Below, piece by piece: positions 3,140 through 61,215 of a stretch of DNA of 64,000 nucleotides; position 1 is the first letter of the stretch, and every line of letters starts with the position of its first letter. Source of the DNA: a virus (Duplodnaviria; Caudoviricetes); the IMG/VR virus record IMGVR_UViG_2595698902_000001, positions 216,539-280,538 of that record; one strand, given 5' to 3'. Under the pieces are notes generated by a model that saw nothing but the letters and a program-made list of their open reading frames with translations, had not been told where the DNA came from and made no database searches. Position numbers and translations under genes: made by a program.

Positions 3140-4043
3140 TGGGTTCGCCCACAAAAGGTTGTTTGAACAGAATGCGTGTATCGGTGACTTTGTAGCTTGC
3201 CGCGTCAAGGTCTTGCTTAACCAACAAACCGTCGATTGTAGCATTGCCGGTTGTCGATCTTACGGTGTGTTCTTTGCTGCCAACGCCCAGCACGCCAAGG
3301 TCGAGCATGTATTGCAGATATTCGCCGGGGCAACCGAGCGTAACGATCAGGCCGTTACCTTCGTTCGCACAAATCAGGAATTTTTTGAAGCGGTCGTGCT
3401 GGTCGCGAATCACGCGCAGGCAGTCTTCCAGCGTTTCGACTTTATTCCGGGGAGTATCGTCGTCTTCGCATTCGCCGTCGTCCGGTTCGGCGCAGCCTGT
3501 ATCCTCGAAAATGCGCCAGTCATTACCGACGAAAATTGCAGACTGCAAAACCATTGCGCCGGGGCGGTTGAATTTCAAGGTAAACAGATCGGGTTTTGCG
3601 TCCGAGTCCGCGTCTTCCAACGGCAGCGCCGGGCTGATATCCAGCTTGAAATGAATTCGTTCTTTTTTCTCGACGCGCAGGAAAGGAATACCTGCCGCTT
3701 CCAGCACAGGCGCCAATTGATCAGCCAGTGCATTGAGTGCGGCGTGTTTCCGATCCAGACTGTTGGCTGCGCTGATAATGCGTTCGGCCAACTTGTTCAC
3801 GTCTTTGGCCTGCTTCGGACCGCATATTCTGAACTTAGGAACAAACGCAGTAAAACTAGCTTCTTTTTTCGGCGTCGTGTAGTAGGAAGTGCGTACCCAC
3901 GCGAGGCCGCGACGGTACATGTTTTCGGTGCGAGCGGTACGCGATTCAGCGTTGCCCGTTTCTACGCCGTGCTCAGTGCAAATAAAACCGGCATCGTGCA
4001 GCAGGGCTTCCAGTTGCTGGATAAATTCTACTTCATAGCGCAT
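3132..4043 (-). CDS. hypothetical protein, paralog family A
   Basis: 303 aa ORF with a GGAGG RBS. Confidence 0.75.
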   Translation of the reverse strand: MRYEVEFIQQLEALLHDAGFICTEHGVETGNAESRTARTENMYRRGLAWVRTSYYTTPKKEASFTAFVPKFRICGPKQAKDVNKLAERIISAANSLDRKHAALNALADQLAPVLEAAGIPFLRVEKKERIHFKLDISPALPLEDADSDAKPDLFTLKFNRPGAMVLQSAIFVGNDWRIFEDTGCAEPDDGECEDDDTPRNKVETLEDCLRVIRDQHDRFKKFLICANEGNGLIVTLGCPGEYLQYMLDLGVLGVGSKEHTVRSTTGNATIDGLLVKQDLDAASYKVTDTRILFKQPFVGEPNE

Positions 4044-4352
4044 TTAATTTGCCTCCACGGCTGTTCTGTTCCACTGGCTTGCGTTGCGAATCAATACGTC
4101 GTCAATCTCGCCGCGAGAATCCAAATCCAAAGTTTCCGAACGCCCGTGGCAATTAGGATCGCCGCTGACTTCGCAGAAACCTGCGCTAACCACATTCAGC
4201 GTTGGCTTGATATCGCCGCCTGTACGATCCATTGCGCGAATCGTCATTTGCGACATTACATCGTGGTTGATGCACTTTGGAAAAATGATCGGCAGTTCGT
4301 GAATCACGCCGGTCTGATAATCGCGTCCTTGCATAACAATGTACTTCATCAT
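4044..4352 (-). CDS. small phage protein, paralog family B (MKY..PIIFP..H..SAGF..SR..D)
   Basis: Motif shared with 11270-11584 and the N-terminus of 39043-39900. Confidence 0.75.
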   Translation of the reverse strand: MMKYIVMQGRDYQTGVIHELPIIFPKCINHDVMSQMTIRAMDRTGGDIKPTLNVVSAGFCEVSGDPNCHGRSETLDLDSRGEIDDVLIRNASQWNRTAVEAN

Positions 4353-4367
4353 TTCTCGTTTTCCTTG

Positions 4368-4502
4368 TTAACGACGAATAGCGAAACCGGAATGCCCAGT
4401 TTGTGCAGCGAATCCCTTGGAGACTTTTGGTTCGTTGCAACCGATCAACGCGACAAGCGCGAAGACCGGCAACAGCGGCATAATATTGCGGAGATTTTTC
4501 AT
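4368..4502 (-). CDS. putative small lipoprotein (44 aa)
   Basis: MKNLRNIMPLLPVFALVALIGC carries a lipobox; start overlaps the upstream stop. Confidence 0.55.
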   Translation of the reverse strand: MKNLRNIMPLLPVFALVALIGCNEPKVSKGFAAQTGHSGFAIRR

Positions 4503-4930
4503 AGCAATACTTTCCTAAACCCTTGGTCAAAGAAAATCGTTACGCCTTGTGTTTTGGAGCCGTGGCCTGTGATGCACACTGCACCGGGACTGCGTGAAAT
4601 CTTGTGCTCGAAATCTACCCGTTTGAACAAAGCGCCATTCTCTTTGCAGCGCGCTTTCATTTTATTTACAGTTTCGTAGGAGAAGCGTGGCGGCTCACGG
4701 AGCTGGAATTCTGTGTACCAATACTGCGCCCACTCTTCGCGCTTCTGCACATCCCTTGCACGTTCTGCGTGGCGTTCGGAATAGCCGTTAAACGAATTAC
4801 TCTTTGGGCCGTTTATGTACCACACAATCCCGAGGAAAAACAGCAAGGCAAACACAGCAAGGAACAGAGCGGTCAGGGCATCGCTCTTAGCATGACGGTC
4901 GCATTTGCAACAGCAACATTTAGTCGTCAT
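4499..4930 (-). CDS. membrane-anchored hypothetical protein
   Basis: Cys-rich N-terminus followed by one hydrophobic TM segment. Confidence 0.7.
   Translation of the reverse strand: MTTKCCCCKCDRHAKSDALTALFLAVFALLFFLGIVWYINGPKSNSFNGYSERHAERARDVQKREEWAQYWYTEFQLREPPRFSYETVNKMKARCKENGALFKRVDFEHKISRSPGAVCITGHGSKTQGVTIFFDQGFRKVLL
4663..4673 (-). promoter_or_regulatory. AACTGTAAATA motif (intragenic)
   Basis: Perfect copy inside the CDS, about 160 nt upstream of the next gene start. Confidence 0.45.
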
Positions 4931-45263: not shown

Positions 45264-45503
45264 TTAGCAGCTACGGCTAGTCAGTTTGTTTTTCGCTTCG
45301 TCCCACGGCACAACACCGGCGCTGATGTTTTGCGGATCGCGCACGACCAGCTCATAGCGGAAACCGTGTTTGCTATCACCGTAACCAGCAACCAGCCTGC
45401 CGCACTGGCAATTCATCCAGCGGAACGGAAAGCCTGCGCTATGGAGCGCGTAAGCGATATGGATTTTATCGTTCGTCGTCAGCAGACCGTTATCCTCAGT
45501 CAT
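45264..45503 (-). CDS. hypothetical protein
   Basis: 79 aa ORF. Confidence 0.6.
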   Translation of the reverse strand: MTEDNGLLTTNDKIHIAYALHSAGFPFRWMNCQCGRLVAGYGDSKHGFRYELVVRDPQNISAGVVPWDEAKNKLTSRSC

Positions 45504-45918
45504 AGTGACGATCCTTGACGAATTTGTACATGTCGGCGAACGATTTGAAATGATCTACCGAGTAATCGGGAATTTCCATTTCAAACTCTTCTTCGAGGGC
45601 CAGAACCATTTCGATTCGGTCCAGATCGTCTACGCCTGTATCCTCAAACGATTCGGCCATATTCTCATGCGTGATTTCTTCACCGAGAATATTTTGCACG
45701 GCGCTGAAAAAGCGACCGGCAAAAGAATGCTTATCGCCGTAGTCGATGTGGGCGCAAGCTTGCGTGCGCGGCAGCTCAGGCGCCGGGGCAGGTTCGGCAT
45801 CAGGCAGCACGCCGGTAATTTGCTCGACAGCAGCAAACAGGGTTTTCAGCTTGTGTACTACGAGCGGACTGCTAGCCATCGCAGTCAGCACGGCACGTTG
45901 TTCATTTTGAGTCAGCAT
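45496..45918 (-). CDS. protein with C-terminal acyl-carrier-protein-like domain lacking the Ppant Ser
   Basis: SFEDTGVDDLDRIEMVLALEEEFEMEIPD..HFKSFAD compared with AcpP [30 protein letters not shown]. Confidence 0.85.
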   Translation of the reverse strand: MLTQNEQRAVLTAMASSPLVVHKLKTLFAAVEQITGVLPDAEPAPAPELPRTQACAHIDYGDKHSFAGRFFSAVQNILGEEITHENMAESFEDTGVDDLDRIEMVLALEEEFEMEIPDYSVDHFKSFADMYKFVKDRHYD

Positions 45919-46168
45919 TGTTTTCCACTCCGTACAGCAGGGTTTGTCGTGCGAGTTGGTACGCACTATCAATCGGCGCAGGCGGAACATTTGGGAAATA
46001 TTGCACCGCTTGCAGGTACTCGACGATCATAGCCTCGGCTTTTTGGTCGTCCGCTTCGTAAAACAGCTCGGTCCAAACGCCTTTGATATAATCGCTCACA
46101 AAAGCTTGACCTAAGCGCTCGCTTGGGCGGTTTGCTTTCGTCCGCTTTTTCCACTCTTCAAAAGTCAT
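45902..46168 (-). CDS. hypothetical phage protein
   Basis: RLGQAF...ELFY motif. Confidence 0.65.
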   Translation of the reverse strand: MTFEEWKKRTKANRPSERLGQAFVSDYIKGVWTELFYEADDQKAEAMIVEYLQAVQYFPNVPPAPIDSAYQLARQTLLYGVENNADSK

Positions 46169-47543: not shown

Positions 47544-49655
47544 TTAGAACTTGATGTTGAGGATGCGGCTCATGGAACCTTTCACCCGCACTTGCATTTC
47601 GTGACGCTGGCCGACCGAGAAGCCAAGGCCGCTCAATTGGTTTTCGCTGTACGGCGCACGCATTTGCGAAGCAACTACTTCAAACACTTTGCGATGTTGG
47701 TGCAGATCATCACGCAGGAATTCGTTGTAGAAACCACGCGACGACTCTTCGTTTGCGCAGCCTTTCAGCATGAAGAAAACGTGCTCATGGCCGATCTTCT
47801 GATCATTCCAGAAATTCGGCGAGCGGGTAATCAGATCAACCGGCACCCACGATTCGGTCGAAATACCCCACTGCTCTTTGCTCACCGAGTTGCAAGGCAG
47901 GTGGTGCTCGATGCTGAATACGCCCTTTTTCAGGGTAACGGTTGCAACGTGTACCCATTCTTTGTTTTCCAGCGGACGGTCTACTTCGTACTCGAAAATC
48001 TGACCAGCAAATTCGATTTCCGCTTTGAAGCCACCGAGGGTCGGAGCGCGCAAATCCCAGTTGTGGATTTTGCATTCGTATTTGCCGTCTTTCAGCCTCG
48101 ACAAATCAGGGAACGTGATGTTTTCAACAGGCACGTAACCTTCTGGTGCGCGATCAACATAATCCACGTCTTGTACACCACCAGAAATGCGGTCGGTGCG
48201 GTTGTTCCAGCCTACACGCTGGCCGTGGCCGTATTGGTCATGCTTGCCGTTCTTGTGTTCGCAACCCGGCATGAATACGTGCAGGTCCATCAGCGAAGCA
48301 TTGCGTTTGCCGTAGTTCCAGCTATGCGAGAAACGCAGCACGCCGTCTACACGACCGCCCTTTTCTTGCACTGCGCGGCGAATATCGGAATCGGTCATGT
48401 CGCCGTAGTACGACCACGAAAAACCGTTATCCCATTTGAACAGCGGATTTGCATCAGGATGAACCGGCGCCAGCAGGCTCACCATTTGCGGCAGGTGAAC
48501 GTTTTTCACGAACGCTTCAACGGTATCGACTTTCGGCAGAACTTTCTTGATGAAATCCTGAATCGAAATGTCTTCGGCGTGGTCGAACTTCGGCACTTCT
48601 TTTTTGGTCGGCTTGATCGAATCGAACGCACCGCCCAGCAGTTGCTTTTTGACCGAACCGTCTACGAACAAAACGTCGTTTACGGAAATGTCTTCACGCA
48701 CAGCGTAACGGCGCGGCAACGCGGTTTCCAGTTCCAGTTTCTCGACAGTCTTTTGCGCTTCGTCAATCATTTTCTGAGTGACCAGAGCTTTCGGGCGCTT
48801 GTAGTTCGGGCCTGCGACAACAGCCTCGAATTTCTTCACTGCAATTTCCAGCTCTTCGCCGCCGGTAATGTCCAGCAGTAGAGTACCGATTGCTTTGGAG
48901 TGGATGCGAGTTTTCGGCGAGCAGTTCAGCCACAGGAAAATTTCGCGATCACGATCGGTTTTCAGCTTGTTGTATTTCTGTTTCAGCTTGATCAGCAGTT
49001 CGACCGAGTGGCGGAATTCAGCGCCTTTGTACAGCGAATCTTGGTCGATCAAATCGAGCACAATTTCCGCAGCAGCATCGCTGATTTCAGTAATCGAACG
49101 GCGCAGGCCGTTAACGTCGTCTTTTGCTTGGCCGACATAATCGGATTTGTTGTTGGCCCACTGGAAAATCTTCGGTACGTCACCGTGGAAGTGGTGCCAC
49201 GTTTCGCCGGTAATTTTGCTGGTGTTTTTCGCGCAGCCGTAGCTTGGCATTTCAACCACGAACGGATGGGAGATTGGCAGCAGCTTAACCAGCGCCGACA
49301 TGGAATCCGCGACGTGCTGATAAGTCGGGTCTTCGACTTCTACGTCCCACACGGTTTTAATACCGTCTTTGTCCATGTAAATCACGGCGCCGAGATTGCG
49401 CACGAAGTTGCGGCAGTTATCGCAATCGTACTCGGTACGCTCGCGGAACATTTTGTTGGTGCCTTCGGGGAACGAGGCAAGATAATGCGCCCACAGTTGG
49501 TCGCCGGTGCTCGGGCCGTCGATCACATCACCGTTTTCGTCGAGTGCATCAGGGAATTTCACAACGAAAACATTCTGCTTTTCGCCGCCGTCCTTTTGCA
49601 GGATGGTGTTGTAGGCGTTGGTTACTGCTTGGCCGAACTTAATGAAGTTGCTCAT
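47544..49655 (-). CDS. large phage protein with CxxC motif and YfaP/DUF2135-like C-terminal domain
   Basis: YDCDNCRNF; DLHV..P..GG.QDVD..PVENI.F..G.Y...IHNW. Confidence 0.75.
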   Translation of the reverse strand: MSNFIKFGQAVTNAYNTILQKDGGEKQNVFVVKFPDALDENGDVIDGPSTGDQLWAHYLASFPEGTNKMFRERTEYDCDNCRNFVRNLGAVIYMDKDGIKTVWDVEVEDPTYQHVADSMSALVKLLPISHPFVVEMPSYGCAKNTSKITGETWHHFHGDVPKIFQWANNKSDYVGQAKDDVNGLRRSITEISDAAAEIVLDLIDQDSLYKGAEFRHSVELLIKLKQKYNKLKTDRDREIFLWLNCSPKTRIHSKAIGTLLLDITGGEELEIAVKKFEAVVAGPNYKRPKALVTQKMIDEAQKTVEKLELETALPRRYAVREDISVNDVLFVDGSVKKQLLGGAFDSIKPTKKEVPKFDHAEDISIQDFIKKVLPKVDTVEAFVKNVHLPQMVSLLAPVHPDANPLFKWDNGFSWSYYGDMTDSDIRRAVQEKGGRVDGVLRFSHSWNYGKRNASLMDLHVFMPGCEHKNGKHDQYGHGQRVGWNNRTDRISGGVQDVDYVDRAPEGYVPVENITFPDLSRLKDGKYECKIHNWDLRAPTLGGFKAEIEFAGQIFEYEVDRPLENKEWVHVATVTLKKGVFSIEHHLPCNSVSKEQWGISTESWVPVDLITRSPNFWNDQKIGHEHVFFMLKGCANEESSRGFYNEFLRDDLHQHRKVFEVVASQMRAPYSENQLSGLGFSVGQRHEMQVRVKGSMSRILNIKF

Positions 49656-55200: not shown

Positions 55201-55701
55201 TCAAATCAAAACGATTTTGTCTTCATCTGCCAGCACAACGCCGTGGTGTAACTCGGCCCACATTTCGGCATAGTGCATTACACATTTACAGAAATTCATC
55301 GGTGCGCGGTTACGCAACAAACCGGGCGGGTTTTCCGTAGGACCGGATTCACCAAAGGCGCCTTGAATTTCGATACTGCCGTCTGCGCCCCAGCCTTGAT
55401 GAAAGTCCACGCGAAGGCCCATATAAGCCGCTACAGCGACGGCAGCGTTTGCATCGGTGTACGGATCGAATTCAGCACGCAAACGCTCAGGGCGTTGCGG
55501 TAGGGGCTGATACAGGCCGCTAACGCATTTGCCTTTGCCCATTGCGCTAAGGCCTACGTCTTCATAACCCAGCAGGCGGGCAAACAGCGCGCTTACCGGG
55601 TGTACCTTTTCCGTGCGAACAATCGTAAAGACGCTGGCGTGATCGGTGCGCGAACTGGTTTTAATCGGCGCAGGAGGTTTGTGCATGTATTTGCTCGTCA
55701 T
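55201..55701 (-). CDS. hypothetical protein
   Basis: 166 aa ORF. Confidence 0.65.
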   Translation of the reverse strand: MTSKYMHKPPAPIKTSSRTDHASVFTIVRTEKVHPVSALFARLLGYEDVGLSAMGKGKCVSGLYQPLPQRPERLRAEFDPYTDANAAVAVAAYMGLRVDFHQGWGADGSIEIQGAFGESGPTENPPGLLRNRAPMNFCKCVMHYAEMWAELHHGVVLADEDKIVLI

Positions 55702-56077
55702 CTTTCGTCTCTACCAAAATTGTTTTTTCACGAACCATACGCAACATGCGCGGCTCGCCTTTACTACCGACCACAACGTACCCTAGCGATTCGTAAAGCT
55801 GGCGCGCTTCGGTGTTGTATTCGTAAACGTGCAAAGAGCTGCGCCCTTTACCGGATGCGGTGCCCAACAGCAGCCGTGCAATTCCTTGACGGCGGTAAGG
55901 CTCCAAAATAAATAAATCGTGAATGACTACGCACTGCTTTGTTTTGTATGCGGTCACGCCGCCAGCGTATAGAAAACAACCGCTGCCATCGTCCGCAAAA
56001 ACTTCGTAGCGGTGGCGCTTGAAAAGAGCATGATGCGTGAGGCGCAAAGTCAGCGCGCCCAAAGTAACAATTGCCAT
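55661..56077 (-). CDS. GNAT acetyltransferase (RimI-like)
   Basis: LFILEPYRRQGIARLLL; LHV...N..A..LYE.LGY. Confidence 0.9.
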   Translation of the reverse strand: MAIVTLGALTLRLTHHALFKRHRYEVFADDGSGCFLYAGGVTAYKTKQCVVIHDLFILEPYRRQGIARLLLGTASGKGRSSLHVYEYNTEARQLYESLGYVVVGSKGEPRMLRMVREKTILVETKDDEQIHAQTSCAD

Positions 56078-56131: not shown

Positions 56132-56524
56132 TTAACGAGCCAGACAGGTAATGTCGTAAGGCAGCAGGTACAGGCGCACAGGCTCAGGCAAGCCCGGTGC
56201 GAATACTTCCGCGAATTCAGGCAAGGCCATTGCATCGCGCAAATCGCGTGCGGTGCTCAGCAGCGTTACCATGCCTTCCAGCGCTTCAAGGTCGTTACCC
56301 CGCACGCTGGTTTCGACGGTGCGCACCAGATCATCGCAGGCAGCTTCGATCAGGTTGCGGAAATCGTAGGCCGCAACGGAAATAATTTCCCTGAAATCGC
56401 GCTGCCAGAATTTGTCCTTGCAGTGCTTGCCGATGCCGGTGGCCGCTGCGCTGGAAAAACTGATATTCAGGTAACGGTTTTTGAGGCAGACGAAAACGTC
56501 ATTGCCGGTGTGTCCAGTAGTCAT
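56132..56524 (-). CDS. hypothetical protein
   Basis: 130 aa ORF. Confidence 0.65.
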   Translation of the reverse strand: MTTGHTGNDVFVCLKNRYLNISFSSAAATGIGKHCKDKFWQRDFREIISVAAYDFRNLIEAACDDLVRTVETSVRGNDLEALEGMVTLLSTARDLRDAMALPEFAEVFAPGLPEPVRLYLLPYDITCLAR

Positions 56525-56790
56525 TATTTCTCTACCAATTTATTGATTTTGATTTTGGTGCGAACGTAAAGCGGATTCAGCACCGCCCAATAGACAATCG
56601 CGCTACCCGCTGCGCCGTATATGTACCACTCCACCAGCCCATAGTCCGGGTCAACGTCCACAAACGGACGTATTATGAAAATGGCTGCAATCCCGGCGAC
56701 CAGTGAAAGGGCATTAATCACAACCACGGTGCAGATAACGAACAGAACCCACTTACATGTAATTAACAGTTTTCTTTTCATGGTCAGCAC
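56524..56790 (-). CDS. two-TM membrane protein
   Basis: Hydrophobic segments. Confidence 0.6.
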   Translation of the reverse strand: MLTMKRKLLITCKWVLFVICTVVVINALSLVAGIAAIFIIRPFVDVDPDYGLVEWYIYGAAGSAIVYWAVLNPLYVRTKIKINKLVEK

Positions 56791-57131
56791 GCGTCAAACT
56801 CTTCGCGGTCTTCAACCAGCAACTCGACTTGCGTGTCGTGGTGCAGGCCAACGCGCAAAAGCTTATCGCGCAGAATGTTTATCAGCATACCGGCCTGAAA
56901 AACCTGAATGCGTTCTGGTATCTGCTCGCGCTTAACCAGCTCTTCCAGCAATTCGTCCTCGGCGTTATCCAGCGCCGTTTGGAATTCATGCAGCGCCATC
57001 GGCTGTGATTTCGTGCCCACGGTCAGCATCAGCGGGCGATTGGACGAATCGACAAATTTTTGCACCAGCAGATACTGCTCAACGGTCCATTCTGCCAGCA
57101 GAGTGTCGCCTTTCAAAAGCTGCATTACCAA
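56784..57131 (-). CDS. hypothetical protein
   Basis: 115 aa ORF. Confidence 0.65.
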   Translation of the reverse strand: MVMQLLKGDTLLAEWTVEQYLLVQKFVDSSNRPLMLTVGTKSQPMALHEFQTALDNAEDELLEELVKREQIPERIQVFQAGMLINILRDKLLRVGLHHDTQVELLVEDREEFDAC

Positions 57132-58111
57132 TCCTTAAATACAGAGTAATCGTCAGGGTTAAACGTGTTTTTGGTATTGAGTACCAATTGTTTCAGGCTG
57201 TCCCGGTCGAGTGTAGTGGAAAGCAAGTCAATAATGGCATTCCGTTTCCGCATCGGCTGCATTTTATTCAAGGTTTCCAGATCGGCAGCTTTTTGCAGGA
57301 AGCGATTCCAATCGTCAGAGTGCAGCGCCAGATTAAACAGCGCCACAAGTCCGGGCATGGAAACGTAGGAAAGCGTATCAGCAATAACGTCCCAAATTTC
57401 CAACCGTGCTTTGTCTTCGTCGGGACGCAAAGGCTGCTCGTAGTCTACCGAGTGGAATTGTTCCAAACGCGCAGCGTGCGATTGCGCATCGCTAGGGCCG
57501 ATTTCGACAGGAATACATTCCTTCGCCGGTTCCACAAACGAATCATCCAAAAATTCGCGGTAGGAATCGCGGTGCTGGTTGATCAGCTCCGGGTCGGTAA
57601 TGAACGCATTGAACGTGTCGTCGGAGAACGTCACGCCCAGCTGCTCGGCAATGCGCGCTAGGGTAGGCTCCGGGTCTTTGCCGTTATGCAGCGCGCAGAG
57701 GCTCACAGCGGCCTTTGCAACGCGCCGTAAGCGCAGGTCGATACAATCCGACAGCCACACGCCTAAACCTTCGTCAGGGTCCGTGTATTGCTCAGAAAAC
57801 GGCTGGCAAAGGTTATTGCCCCATGCGGTTGCAGCCAAGCGCTCGATGGTGGTACGCGCCCCGATGTTGTGCGAGTGCAAAAGAACACGGCCCGCACCTT
57901 CTGGCGTAACTGCGCAGTAATGCACGCCGTTAAAGAATTCGCCAAGCTCGACAATGACGACCGCAACAGAGCGACCGGATTTCGCAGACTTTACGGTAAG
58001 CACGGCGCCCGACGAACCGTAAGAAACCGTTTTGTTGCCTTTGAGTGCTTTTGCTACGCGGCTAACAAGATGCACCGCATCGGCGTGCGACAGCGACAGT
58101 TTTAAGCTCAT
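57125..58111 (-). CDS. hypothetical protein
   Basis: 328 aa ORF. Confidence 0.7.
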   Translation of the reverse strand: MSLKLSLSHADAVHLVSRVAKALKGNKTVSYGSSGAVLTVKSAKSGRSVAVVIVELGEFFNGVHYCAVTPEGAGRVLLHSHNIGARTTIERLAATAWGNNLCQPFSEQYTDPDEGLGVWLSDCIDLRLRRVAKAAVSLCALHNGKDPEPTLARIAEQLGVTFSDDTFNAFITDPELINQHRDSYREFLDDSFVEPAKECIPVEIGPSDAQSHAARLEQFHSVDYEQPLRPDEDKARLEIWDVIADTLSYVSMPGLVALFNLALHSDDWNRFLQKAADLETLNKMQPMRKRNAIIDLLSTTLDRDSLKQLVLNTKNTFNPDDYSVFKDW

Positions 58112-58120
58112 GGTTTTTCC

Positions 58121-58315
58121 TCAGAGACTGCCGACCAGTTTGGCCGACAAAGCGGGAACGAAAATATCTTGATCCAGATTGCAGTAGCCGCAACGCACGC
58201 GCCACAGCGGCGGCATGGTGTGCAGTGGTTTGAAATCTTTTTCTTCGCCTTGGCAAGTGGCGCCGCATTTCGAGCAAGTGAAAATCAGCGGCGGTGCCGA
58301 CAATACTTTGACCAT
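58121..58315 (-). CDS. small Zn-ribbon protein
   Basis: CSKC...CGYC. Confidence 0.7.
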   Translation of the reverse strand: MVKVLSAPPLIFTCSKCGATCQGEEKDFKPLHTMPPLWRVRCGYCNLDQDIFVPALSAKLVGSL

Positions 58316-58344
58316 TTTATTTCCCTCCTATCAAACGTCACTGC

Positions 58345-58370
58345 AATAGGCACTCTCGCGAATGCCTATT
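58345..58370 (-). repeat. conserved intergenic hairpin, copy 3
   Basis: AAUAGGCAUUC-GCGA-GAGUGCCUAUU with a GNRA loop. Confidence 0.75.
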
Positions 58371-58379
58371 AAAGCTGGT

Positions 58380-59105
58380 TTAAGCTTCGGGTTTTTCCGC
58401 TGGTTTTTCTACCGAGTCGCACCAGTACATCATGTCGTTCCACGTATGACGCAGCAGGTAGTAAACCGGCTCCACCATATCAGCAGGCGTTACCGATTGA
58501 ACGGCCTGCAAAAGCGTCAGGCGGTAAAACTGATTTGTATCGAAAATGCCGTACAGATATGCGTGCGGCGCGTTCGCTTCTCTTGCGGCTTCGGCTTCGG
58601 CCTCTTTCTCGATGCGCATTTGCTCGCACGCTTCTTTGTCGAAAGAGTTTTCATGCGCGGCAGCAGAGGCACGCACCCACGCGGCGAGCTGCGCAGCAAT
58701 AGCCGGGGATTTCATCAGCGGTTCTGGCGAGGTTTCGGTCGGCGCTACGGTTTCTTCTCCCAGTTCGTAAGCTTTTCTGAGTTCTTCTTTTTCAGCCTCG
58801 CTGGCAGGGCGCGTAACGCGGGTGACGGTCAGTTCCATCATTTGGTGCCAGTCAGGGTCAGCAACGGCCTTTTCGCAGTAGGCGATAATGTCACCAATGG
58901 TTTCCCATTCCTGCATCACGTCTTCGGGAATTTCGATGCAGAATTCGCCTTCCAGAATAAGGGTAATTTCGGCACGATCCGTTTCGTCGGCAAGCACGGA
59001 TTCCAACGAAGAGGCGACAAAGATATGCTCGCGCATTTCGTCCGTCACGGTGCAGATGGTGTCGAAAACCTGATTGGCGAGTTTTTTGATAGTGATAGTT
59101 GGCAT
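58380..59105 (-). CDS. protein with N-terminal acyl-carrier-protein-like domain lacking the Ppant Ser
   Basis: SLESVLADETDRAEITLILEGEFCIEIPEDVMQEWETIGDIIAYC. Confidence 0.75.
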   Translation of the reverse strand: MPTITIKKLANQVFDTICTVTDEMREHIFVASSLESVLADETDRAEITLILEGEFCIEIPEDVMQEWETIGDIIAYCEKAVADPDWHQMMELTVTRVTRPASEAEKEELRKAYELGEETVAPTETSPEPLMKSPAIAAQLAAWVRASAAAHENSFDKEACEQMRIEKEAEAEAAREANAPHAYLYGIFDTNQFYRLTLLQAVQSVTPADMVEPVYYLLRHTWNDMMYWCDSVEKPAEKPEA

Positions 59106-59130
59106 TTGTTCGATTCCTTGAAATGGGTTA

Positions 59131-59148
59131 GGGGCGCCGTAGCGCCCC
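59131..59148 (-). terminator. UNCG-tetraloop stem-loop
   Basis: GGGGCGC-UACG-GCGCCCC, intergenic. Confidence 0.55.
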
Positions 59149-59155
59149 AGTGGGA

Positions 59156-59587
59156 TTAGTTGCGGAACTGGCCGTCAGGGTGGCAGAAGTCGTAAATGGT
59201 ACGCTTCACGCCATTATCTTCGACCTTGCGCGCCCGACGAATTTTGTACGGGTCCAGCGCGTAAACAAAATTGTCCACGCGGAATTCAATGCGGCACCAC
59301 GGCGCGCTGTTGTATTCTTCCCACGCGACCAGTGCATCGCGCAGGCTGGCGAAGTCGTCGCAGTAATCGCAATCCTCGCCGTCTTCGGTGAGTTTACCGG
59401 CTGCAACGCCGTAGATGAAAATTTCACCTTCCAGCTTTTCCAGCTCTTCGGCACCCATCAGGCCGGTGCGTTTTGCCAGCGAGATTTGCGCCCGATACAT
59501 TTCCGTTTCGGTAATCAAACCTTGTTGGAACTGGCCGATCAGCTCAGCCGATTCAGGGCAGGGGAAAGCGATTTTGAATTGGGTCAT
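59156..59587 (-). CDS. hypothetical protein
   Basis: 143 aa ORF. Confidence 0.7.
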   Translation of the reverse strand: MTQFKIAFPCPESAELIGQFQQGLITETEMYRAQISLAKRTGLMGAEELEKLEGEIFIYGVAAGKLTEDGEDCDYCDDFASLRDALVAWEEYNSAPWCRIEFRVDNFVYALDPYKIRRARKVEDNGVKRTIYDFCHPDGQFRN

Positions 59588-59640
59588 TTTTCTTCCTCGG
59601 TGTTATCGTCGTTTTGCGTCAAAAGGTTTTTCTACCGACA

Positions 59641-59661
59641 AACCCCGCACTAGGCGGGGTT
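59641..59661 (-). terminator. probable intrinsic terminator
   Basis: AACCCCGC-CUAGU-GCGGGGUUUGU. Confidence 0.55.
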
Positions 59662-59671
59662 CTGATTGTCG

Positions 59672-59899
59672 TTAGAGGGCGTTGATTTCTTCCTCGGTCA
59701 GCACTGGCGTTCCGGGGAAACGTTCTTTCATGTACTGCTCATACTCTTCGCGGAGGATCAAACCGCAAGCGCGGAAACCGGCGTAGTCTTGAGCGGTGAA
59801 ACCGAGGTGGCAGCGTTGTGCGTTCATCGTAAACTTCCCTAATGGCGTGAGTGTTAATCTATCAGGCACGCTTTGCCCGATTCGCCAGCAGGTTATCAA
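59672..59899 (-). CDS. hypothetical protein
   Basis: ORF; start probably at MNAQ. Confidence 0.5.
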   Translation of the reverse strand: MITCWRIGQSVPDRLTLTPLGKFTMNAQRCHLGFTAQDYAGFRACGLILREEYEQYMKERFPGTPVLTEEEINAL

Positions 59900-59914
59900 A
59901 CGCCCTACCGCCTG

Positions 59915-60595
59915 TCAACCCTCATACAGCATAGGCCGCTCAGGCTCCACCTTGAACGTCAGCACGTCGCGGTTAATCCATACGCCGTTAAGCGCTGCTA
60001 GGTATTCAATCGCGTTGTGCTTGCCGTCGATCATATGGCGCGGGTACATGACTGCAACAGAATCAATTCCCTTTCCATAATATTGCACGGTGCGCAGAAG
60101 GCGAACCAAAGTCAGACCGAGCAAAGTTTCCATTCCGGCAGATTCTGGATGCAACGCCAGAAAAGAATGCTGCTTGCCGTCCTGCATGATTGTGGAAACA
60201 AAACAATCCATCGTCTCGCGAACCTTCAAATCAGGATCGGCATAAGAAACGTCGAGGCGAATAATTGTCTGGTTACGTTCCAGCGCATAACCGAGCTGTG
60301 TCAGCCAGCGGGAATTTCCGGTGACGTGGTTTTTGGTGCCTTCCCGGTACGAATAGGAAATGTCCGGCTTGCGCAGCGTTACGGTGTAATCCAGCTGGAA
60401 AATGTAAGCGCGCCAGATATGACGCAGGCATTTCTTCCAGATTGGCCCGGTCGGCAAATCTAATACCTTTGCCGCTTTGACGTGGTGGCGGAAAGCGTAG
60501 ATCGCGCCGAGAAACCAAAGCGGATTCGGCAGCACGTAGCGGAAAACCAGAATCAGCACAGCGAGCGACAGCGCGATAATAAGCACGGTAGTCAT
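59915..60595 (-). CDS. membrane-anchored hypothetical protein
   Basis: N-terminal TM; GGAG RBS. Confidence 0.7.
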   Translation of the reverse strand: MTTVLIIALSLAVLILVFRYVLPNPLWFLGAIYAFRHHVKAAKVLDLPTGPIWKKCLRHIWRAYIFQLDYTVTLRKPDISYSYREGTKNHVTGNSRWLTQLGYALERNQTIIRLDVSYADPDLKVRETMDCFVSTIMQDGKQHSFLALHPESAGMETLLGLTLVRLLRTVQYYGKGIDSVAVMYPRHMIDGKHNAIEYLAALNGVWINRDVLTFKVEPERPMLYEG

Positions 60596-60596
60596 T

Positions 60597-60854
60597 TTAT
60601 TTCTCCCCAGCGGCGTTACGCTTGAATGGCTTGCGTTTGTCTTCGGCTTCAAACCACGCCAGCAGTTCGGAGCGTTTGTATAGAGTCGCTTTCTTTTTAC
60701 CGCCGCGTGCCATCATCGGGCGACCAAAACCGCCAGCAGGCGCGCAAGGCTGCGGCGCGTCTGCGCAATTGGCGTAACGTGATTGCAACGTGGTGCGCGC
60801 TACTTTTTTATTGTCGGCCAGATCAGCCATAGACCAGCAAGGTTCGTGTGCCAT
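60597..60854 (-). CDS. excisionase/AlpA-like winged-HTH protein
   Basis: WSMADLAD..KVARTTL...P.P...LY..SEL.AW. Confidence 0.6.
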   Translation of the reverse strand: MAHEPCWSMADLADNKKVARTTLQSRYANCADAPQPCAPAGGFGRPMMARGGKKKATLYKRSELLAWFEAEDKRKPFKRNAAGEK

Positions 60855-60901
60855 TTTGTTTCTACTCCAATTGAATTAGTTTGCGTTCTGTTTCATCCAG
60901 T

Positions 60902-60923
60902 TGCGCACTCGCTAGAATGCGCA
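60902..60923 (-). repeat. conserved intergenic hairpin, copy 4
   Basis: UGCGCAUUC-UAGC-GAGUGCGCA. Confidence 0.75.
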
Positions 60924-60930
60924 GCCGTGA

Positions 60931-61215
60931 TTATTTCAGAAGCCAGCTTTTATCGTTCGTCCAGACCGTGCCGTGCTCGACAAGCTGCTTGTGCATTTCC
61001 TCGGTAATGATGCACACCTTCGGCGGGCCGTCCACGTAACTGAATTCCTGATAGGAACCGGCAGCTTTAATTTTTTCTGCGCGGGCGTTGAATGCTTCCT
61101 CGGTCAGCGCGATTAGGTATCCGTCGAAGCGCGAACCCCAACCGGCCTCGGATTCCGTTACCGTGTTGTAAAAAGCGGTGAATTGTTTTTCAGCGGTGTT
61201 TACTTTGTTGTCCAT
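60931..61215 (-). CDS. hypothetical protein
   Basis: 94 aa ORF, ESE.GWGSR.D motif. Confidence 0.7.
   Translation of the reverse strand: MDNKVNTAEKQFTAFYNTVTESEAGWGSRFDGYLIALTEEAFNARAEKIKAAGSYQEFSYVDGPPKVCIITEEMHKQLVEHGTVWTNDKSWLLK

Follow-up and report, generated by a model that had tools for sequence, protein, structure and literature searches.

What can a domain built like an acyl carrier protein (ACP) do in a phage protein once it lacks the residue on which carrier proteins depend, the serine that receives 4'-phosphopantetheine? This question is raised by a 241-amino acid (aa) open reading frame (ORF) on the minus strand of a 64,000-nucleotide stretch of phage DNA (the window), which comprises bases 216539-280538 of the IMG/VR record IMGVR_UViG_2595698902_000001 (280,538 bp, 100% complete according to CheckV). 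A preliminary description, made from the letters of the window, had proposed that this ORF (the target) begins with an ACP-like domain carrying Glu in place of the attachment Ser. Database searches and structure prediction bear this out, and reveal that the domain is joined through a linker to an all-alpha domain of its own (the C-domain). In our view it is an evenly poised proposition that the product of this gene is an accessory jumbo-phage protein of modular build, whose ACP-fold part is a swappable, non-carrier module for docking or decoy interactions. Judging from sequence, the novelty would lie in a cofactor-free form of the ACP superfamily in the N-terminal part and in an undescribed family in the C-domain.

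The ACP-like domain and its serine position

Searches with phmmer against PDB chain sequences retrieved 58 distinct matches (E ≤ 10), of which 57 were acyl or D-alanyl carrier proteins and one was unrelated (9i38_A), the top match being the Aquifex ACP 2ehs_A (E 6.4e-5). The profile phrog_5934, annotated 'acyl carrier protein', matched residues 29-81 (E 1e-6, 29.8 bits; PHROGs have no curated cut-off), and the peptide quoted in the preliminary description corresponds to residues 37-77. In the three phmmer alignments listed, the segment 'ladEtd' of the target was aligned on 'gadSld', such that Glu41 falls on the Ser of the D-S-L motif, and in ungapped alignments with E. coli ACP chains (query residues 29-76 on 24-71 of 1acp_A) residue 41 falls on residue 36. 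The codon that had been singled out as the altered one is indeed GAA. A MAFFT alignment (A3) of the target, 21 ACP-like representatives and the other copy in the window likewise placed Glu41 on the Ser column, which in the 22 other rows held Ser (18), Glu (3) or Asp (1); the preceding Asp (D40) was invariant, and the near-invariant columns E52, F55 and D72 are retained in the target. A word-based search for shorter proteins with residues 1-90 gave no candidate.

The possibility that the fold is not ACP-like was examined with an AF2 model of residues 1-95 built on A3 (pLDDT 87, pTM 0.73), in which helices span residues 6-21, 41-55, 61-66 and 70-82, followed by a short helix at 85-94 where the linker begins (mean pLDDT of 72 for residues 81-90 and 61 for 91-95). 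Foldseek retrieved 38 PDB matches at E ≤ 0.001, and among the matches listed all were ACPs or ACP-containing complexes, with root mean square deviations of 1.1-1.9 Å, identities of 16-30% and TM-scores, normalised to the target, of 0.80-0.90 (7tgh_AC, at 0.67, excepted). The predicted structure thus shows residues 1-82 folding as an ACP. In the ungapped register, helix II retains the counterparts of E. coli ACP residues D35, E41 and E47 (D40, E46 and E52 in the target), and the counterpart of E48 is Gly53. Given that the attachment Ser is replaced by Glu41, the domain would not be expected, by established carrier-protein chemistry, to receive phosphopantetheine or to carry acyl groups, and in lacking this defining residue the target is not functionally a member of the carrier-protein family.

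A second, separate Ser-less copy fused to a different region had been noted about 13 kb away, and this was also confirmed. A six-frame search of the whole 280.5-kb genome with the Pfam PP-binding family (PF00550) matched exactly two places, the target and a 164-aa protein lying 13.36 kb from it, in which Asp122 takes the place of the Ser; alignment confirmed that D-R follows the acidic residue in both copies, as had been reported. This other copy passes the Pfam cut-off (25.2 bits; 26.4 bits in the six-frame search). The ACP-like parts of the two are 26% identical and gave no significant pairwise BLASTP match, which indicates that they did not arise by recent duplication. By the genetic code, no Ser codon can become GAA or GAT with fewer than two base changes. 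The carrier context of the genome was searched with two families, PF00550 and the phosphopantetheinyl transferase (PPTase) family PF01648, and by these no PPTase or acyl-processing enzyme was found, PF01648 having no matches at E ≤ 10 in this phage genome or in any of the three related phage genomes searched.

Among named phages, Pseudomonas phage HRDY3 (PQ015379) comes closest, though it is distant. At the position of the other copy, HRDY3 and the genomes G001 and G002 encode proteins of 236-240 aa behind the same upstream gene (L011:982-1692, L013:970-1689 and L014:985-1707); their N-terminal parts differ, and the C-terminal ACP domains bear Ser in all three. HRDY3 has, directly downstream of its counterpart, an extra Ser-bearing ACP of 90 aa. 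Since Ser is kept in these counterparts and also in an ACP domain of the related locus L007 described below, the Ser-less state is derived in this phage, and the phage pseudo-ACP family envisaged in the preliminary description was not upheld, the loss being peculiar to this genome.

Further afield, the 25 nearest ACP-like representatives had Ser at the site in 20 instances, Glu in three (P0065, P0073 and P0077) and Asp in one (P0060); the one remaining representative is the two-domain protein P0042, with Pro and Thr. The three Glu-type representatives were retrieved at E-values of 3.6e-4 to 6.9e-4, close to the limit of 0.001, and as a Glu-Glu match may have lifted them, their share is biased upward. 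An alignment of Glu-type ACPs (A7) retrieved none from viral contigs, a weak negative given the few degenerate peptide patterns searched. Canonical Ser was found in eight of nine phage records obtained from tblastn matches, the exception being Aeromonas phage ZPAH1 (MW272540.1; L019, record positions 74624-75868, locus positions 211-510), in which the annotated rIIB opens with an ACP-like segment whose Ser site is taken by Glu, in the stretch G-L-D-E-L-D. This extension is common to phage Aswh_1 (98% identity), and the phage records matching it at E ≤ 0.001 number only three. That acidic replacements recur, twice in the present genome and in the rIIB of two Aeromonas phages, is suggestive at the level of sequence. 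As a separate observation, P0042 (216 aa, from a metagenome) has a signal-peptide- or lipoprotein-like start and two ACP-like domains, with Pro at the Ser site of the first and Thr at that of the second.

The full-length target recurs in two further assemblies (metagenome contigs of 17.5 and 27.8 kb) at 99% identity, such that the 241-codon frame, the fusion and Glu41 are kept in all three assemblies, with A31T, P100S and S102T as variants. An identical, unnamed 241-aa protein is present as the BFVD/UniProt entry I1TR29. A word-based protein search with the whole target retrieved its own cluster only, and a single-protein scan of viral contigs for relatives found none, though with few degenerate peptide patterns this is a weak negative. 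The protein as a whole is very acidic (isoelectric point (pI) 4.40, 47 Asp and Glu against 20 Lys and Arg, net charge about -27).

The C-domain and a locus of shuffled modules

An exhaustive HMMER search with the target against 1.84 billion representatives yielded 79 proteins (E ≤ 0.001), of which 54 matched only residues ~120-241 and 25 only residues 1-~85 (P0042 to residue 119), none matching both halves. When the full-length target was aligned by MAFFT together with the homologues of its two halves (A2), the ACP homologues were misplaced onto the C-domain; this alignment was discarded, and for this reason the two domains were modelled separately. The best match, P0003, is a stand-alone C-domain of 122 aa, 74% identical over residues 128-241 and without an ACP module. 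When C-domain and ACP profiles were run over 93 proteins, the C-domain was found in 65: alone in 40 (no extension of at least 50 residues), with a C-terminal extension in 13, an N-terminal extension in 11 and both in one. Just three of these 65, the target and the two members of its cluster that are 99% identical to it, were also matched by the ACP profile. It had been suggested earlier that the ACP-like domain carries an effector; this distribution reverses the relationship, in that the C-domain is, on the sequences compared, the core that related jumbo phages conserve at this locus, and the ACP module a rare, optional add-on.

The AF2 model of the C-domain is all-alpha and confident (pLDDT 93.6), with helices at residues 7-26, 30-49, 63-66, 71-78 and 81-106 of a 114-residue construct. 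Relatives of known structure or function were sought for it in several collections. In Pfam the target part matched no family, and across the 29 members of the alignment there were just isolated matches of single members; a profile search of the PDB reached E 0.54 at best; and among PHROGs only phrog_26826, of unknown function, was matched (E 0.008). In structural searches, Foldseek against the PDB gave nothing below E 7.9, VIA-align against 48,161 representative chains gave no Z ≥ 5 (best 4.6), TM-scores in the ESM Atlas were all under 0.5, and BFVD returned only the target itself and an uncharacterised Myoviridae protein, A0A8S5UGH5 (TM 0.85). The model and these searches show residues 136-241 to be a separate, confidently predicted all-alpha domain of an uncharacterised and apparently undescribed family. 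With the C-domain profile, a word-based search for longer proteins retrieved P0001 and P0093 only, and the profile alignment A4 found none in bacterial and archaeal genome contigs, again a weak negative owing to the few degenerate peptide patterns. Among ten proteins in which the C-domain is fused, Pfam gave no family explaining the partner domains, with one sub-threshold TUDOR match. The idea that the C-domain is itself a cryptic ACP was ruled out, as hhalign gave a probability of 0.1% between the ACP and C-domain profiles.

C-domain loci were obtained from five IMG/VR loci on phage contigs of 307-314 kb (one a 113-kb fragment) and from HRDY3, and four distinct IMG/VR loci plus HRDY3 were compared by BLASTP. 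The flanks are conserved in all five of the latter, where proteins of 245 and 143 aa lie upstream and proteins of 115 and 330 aa downstream, and it is between these flanks that the arrangement varies. In the window, the Glu-bearing ACP domain, linker and C-domain are followed by a 64-aa and then a 328-aa protein. In L007 (IMGVR_UViG_3300042010_000129), a 430-aa protein at 3296-4588 consists of an N-terminal Ser-bearing ACP domain and a homologue of the 328-aa protein (E 9e-9), after which come a 53-aa ORF, a homologue of the 64-aa protein, and the C-domain with a different C-terminal domain. In HRDY3 the homologue of the 328-aa protein has 337 aa and no ACP domain, and it is followed by a C-domain that bears a different N-terminal domain. 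The HRDY3-type N-terminal domain is joined to the C-domain in L010 also, and in L006 and L009 the C-domain is joined to the other C-terminal domain. These comparisons show, at the level of gene order and sequence, a site of module shuffling among related jumbo phages. In the manner of a 'Rosetta stone', the L007 fusion points to the 328-aa protein as one linked with the ACP module. A PDB sequence search with the 328-aa protein gave no match (best E 0.91), and the ESM Atlas provided no lead.

Sequencing run X2 contained two forms of 58337-58652, one near-identical to the window (one difference) and one ~85% identical (47 differences and two gaps over 316 nt), so that a related phage co-occurs, probably the one encoding the stand-alone P0003; the X2 contigs also include a strain almost identical to the window in which the fusion is present. 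A contig from X2 joins 59103 to 58667, skipping 435 nt (codons 2-146) and connecting the start-codon region to codon 147; one side of this joint has only 30 letters at a likeness threshold of 80%, so that it is a weak hint, in agreement with the P0003 form.

The remaining features of the region are collected in Table 1. Nearly all long ORFs of the window lie on the minus strand, the GC content is 0.49-0.54, and no tRNAs were found in the window. In a megablast search of 57000-61000 against phages just 75 nt of HRDY3 were matched, and a scan of 56500-61000 for promoters and terminators gave counts no higher than in shuffled sequences. The 64-aa protein had no Pfam or PHROG match, and its 71% identity to the L007 counterpart is far above the 24-53% of its neighbours. 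Two further minus-strand genes were observed in the window: a 138-aa GNAT-type acetyltransferase (55661-56077; phrog_1249, E 7e-14), and a 703-aa protein (47544-49655) that matches phrog_1735 end to end (E 7e-242), a family of unknown function that is strongly conserved in phages. ORFs with a GNAT-like motif, recognised by eye, lie directly 3' of the C-domain gene in L006, L009 and L010, though BLASTP homology was obtained for that of L009 only (35% identity, E 2e-4).

Table 1. Positions in the window of the target ORF, its parts and the related or neighbouring features
Feature	Position	Strand	Basis or remark
Target ORF, 241 aa	58380..59105	minus	ACP-like domain, linker and C-terminal helical domain
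Shine-Dalgarno-like site, AAGGAA	59114..59119	minus	8 nt upstream of the ATG (59105-59103); read from sequence
ACP-fold domain, residues 1-82, four helices, pI 4.05	58860..59105	minus	PHROG, phmmer, alignment, AF2, Foldseek
Codon 41, GAA (Glu at the phosphopantetheine-Ser position, first residue of helix II)	58983..58985	minus	Alignment and AF2
Linker, residues 83-135, acidic, Pro/Thr/Glu-rich, without homologues	58701..58859	minus	HMMER and AF2 (residues 83-95)
C-terminal all-alpha domain, residues 136-241, uncharacterised phage/metagenome family	58383..58700	minus	HMMER, AF2, Foldseek
Upstream 143-aa protein, conserved flank	59156..59587	minus	51-72% identity in five related loci
Downstream 64-aa protein, two CxxC pairs, zinc-ribbon-like by eye	58121..58315	minus	71% identical to L007 counterpart
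Downstream 328-aa protein, unknown family	57125..58111	minus	L007 homologue (430 aa) has an N-terminal Ser-bearing ACP domain
Other Ser-less ACP-like protein, 164 aa; ACP-like part about 45499-45708, Asp122 codon GAT at 45625-45627	45496..45990	minus	PF00550 and alignment

Docking module, mimic or relic

In the reading that we favour, the ACP-fold module would work without a cofactor, as a surface for protein-protein docking or as a decoy. The contact surface would be the acidic helix II, which retains the Asp and Glu positions read by ACP partners; the substitutions D35N and E41A and the double substitution E47A/E48A in E. coli ACP are each reported to have stopped modification by AcpS in vivo (bioRxiv 10.1101/2025.01.28.635281). 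With Glu in place of Ser, the N-terminus of helix II would stay negatively charged and the apo state would be permanent. Through such contacts the module may tether or regulate the C-domain relative to a partner, candidates for which are another product of the locus (the 328-aa protein, the homologue of which is ACP-fused in L007) or an ACP-recognising host protein. The precedents of a Plasmodium mitochondrial ACP and of obligate apo-ACPs, considered in the last section, make a cofactor-free role credible.

Several observations weigh against this reading. The target scores below the Pfam gathering cut-off of 20.8 bits for PF00550, both as a protein (14.0 bits, residues 45-76) and in the six-frame search of the genome (15.9 bits). 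With P0003, its closest relative, lacking the ACP module altogether, the module may be dispensable. A common origin of the ACP domains within the locus is not established, as that of the target shares 30% identity with that of L007 (E 1.3e-4 in a small database) and 17-39% with the 14 further ACP-like sequences in the comparison. The domains that bear Ser, in L007 and in the counterparts of the other copy, may be genuine carriers that rely on the PPTase of the host, the target perhaps being a broken one. Having no known fold or family, the C-domain does not itself reveal what is being docked. Lastly, the preliminary description had argued for selection rather than decay; a contig of sequencing run X1, the only close variant compared, differs from the window ORF by four nucleotides, two synonymous (codons 149 and 151) and two non-synonymous (A31T and S102T), which are too few to measure constraint or to permit any statement on dN/dS, and the argument is thus not sustained.

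The most serious of the alternatives is that the domain is a relic: an ancestral carrier, served by a host PPTase and now unneeded, in which both copies lost their Ser neutrally, leaving a tolerated extension on a functional C-domain. The retention of Ser in the three positional counterparts and in L007, the loss of Ser from both domains of one genome, the missing module in the nearest relative and the sub-threshold Pfam score all speak for decay. With the module missing from the nearest relative and Ser kept by the positional counterparts, this explanation stays substantial, if on the whole somewhat unlikely. A decaying domain sits poorly, however, with a confident ACP model in which the most conserved columns of the family, apart from the Ser, are kept, with a frame that is open across 241 codons in all three assemblies, and with two replacements that are both acidic and each at least two base changes away from Ser; functional ACPs that are not carriers do, moreover, exist. 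It is very improbable that the target is still a carrier, with the cofactor on another residue or an unusual modification of Glu41. Three Ser residues do lie 5-9 residues upstream of Glu41 (for instance Ser32, Ser33 and Ser36, before helix II), but the modified Ser of all the matched solved ACPs aligns with Glu41 at the N-terminus of helix II, and the two family searches (PF00550 and PF01648) found no PPTase or acyl-processing family in the genome. Closest to refuted is the notion that a sequencing or assembly error merged two adjacent genes, one small and ACP-like and the other encoding the C-domain from a start near Met131; to this we assign the least probability of all. Each half does have homologues that stand alone, and in alignments Met131 falls close to where stand-alone C-domains begin; against this, the 241-aa frame is uninterrupted in three assemblies from different sources, contigs from X1 and X2 run through the junction without any reported insertion or deletion there, and a good Shine-Dalgarno-like site precedes the first ATG, with none before Met131.

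Host-ACP mimicry is plausible, although as the explanation of this protein we judge it unlikely. Here a permanently apo, acidic look-alike would bind host enzymes that recognise AcpP, such as holo-ACP synthase, glycerol-3-phosphate acyltransferase or SpoT, and would either block them or bring the C-domain to them as an effector, in the service of host takeover. The recognition residues of helix II are retained, and the target protein as a whole is strongly acidic; a non-modifiable apo-ACP is reported to inhibit E. coli growth (PMC4736557), and binding of ACP to SpoT has been described (PMC3340395). Glu or Asp occupies the Ser site in four of the 25 nearest representatives and in the rIIB extension of ZPAH1 and Aswh_1. 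Conversely, the Glu-type share is inflated by the Glu-Glu match and Glu-types were not found in viral contigs with the few peptide patterns searched, the closest relative manages without the module, and the cellular ACPs among the Foldseek matches listed are just 16-30% identical to the domain. A broader version, in which phages have repeatedly made ACPs into permanently apo, acid-substituted decoys on various phage proteins, as in the two copies here and the rIIB of T4-like Aeromonas phages, using the ACP-recognition surfaces of the host (holo-ACP synthase, PlsB, SpoT) as address or target, with the C-domain as a new effector or adaptor fold, is more doubtful still.

ACP is one of the most connected bacterial proteins, and its non-modifiable form is already known to be toxic. 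A phage protein that presents an ACP surface yet could never be loaded would, if the docking or decoy reading is true, offer a ready-made means of probing or inhibiting the nodes that depend on ACP, and would represent a host-takeover module of a new type. Should the ACP part be a relic, the finding would shrink to a minor example of domain decay, leaving the C-domain as the object of greater interest: a recurrent, confidently folded family, with no Pfam, PHROG or PDB counterpart found, in a locus of visibly shuffled modules.

Comparison with known systems

In the literature covered, which was partial and excluded supplements, no description of a Ser-less phage ACP-like domain was found. The nearest cellular standard is bacterial type II AcpP (PF00550), with which the target shares the four-helix fold, the acidic helix II, the invariant Asp before the attachment site and the domain size. 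It differs from AcpP in having Glu for Ser, a Pfam score below the cut-off and a fused tail of 160 residues, and in that no PPTase was found in the phage.

Phage ACPs matching phrog_5934 (annotated in Eneladusvirus, HRDY3, phiXF1 and Bajun) resemble the target in this profile match and in their jumbo-phage setting. Two reports mention phage ACPs without a tested function (PMC7760394, PMC13573597), the latter noting 'acyl carrier protein modules' in freshwater jumbophages. Unlike the target, which lacks Ser and is fused to the C-domain, eight of the nine fetched phage records and the HRDY3-type domains have Ser. The rIIB extension of ZPAH1 and Aswh_1 is similar in being ACP-like, with Glu at the Ser site and fused to the N-terminus of a phage protein; it differs in that it is only 17% identical to the target domain and that its partner is rIIB, in phages of the Straboviridae.

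Engineered obligate apo-ACPs offer a tested dominant-negative precedent for interference with host lipid metabolism, to which the target may be likened by analogy, as a non-modifiable domain with a recognition surface. Overexpression of the S39A form of a Synechococcus ACP suppressed growth of E. coli, and apo-ACP is reported to inhibit sn-glycerol-3-phosphate acyltransferase (PMC4736557). The apo form of E. coli ACP is growth-inhibitory as well. Those proteins are over-produced laboratory mutants of cellular ACPs, whereas the phage domain is far diverged and fused.

A natural parallel is the mitochondrial ACP (mACP) of Plasmodium falciparum, in which Phe replaces Ser. As described in PMC8547962, this protein is cofactor-free, binds Isd11 (in Isd11-Nfs1) and can be essential; the replacing Phe lies in the interface, and its mutation abolishes binding and function. 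Like the mACP, the target keeps the ACP fold after losing Ser, in a genome in which no PPTase was found. The replacement is hydrophobic in the former and acidic in the latter, and the mACP is an unfused organelle protein with a known partner. There is no evidence of common descent between the two beyond the ACP superfamily.

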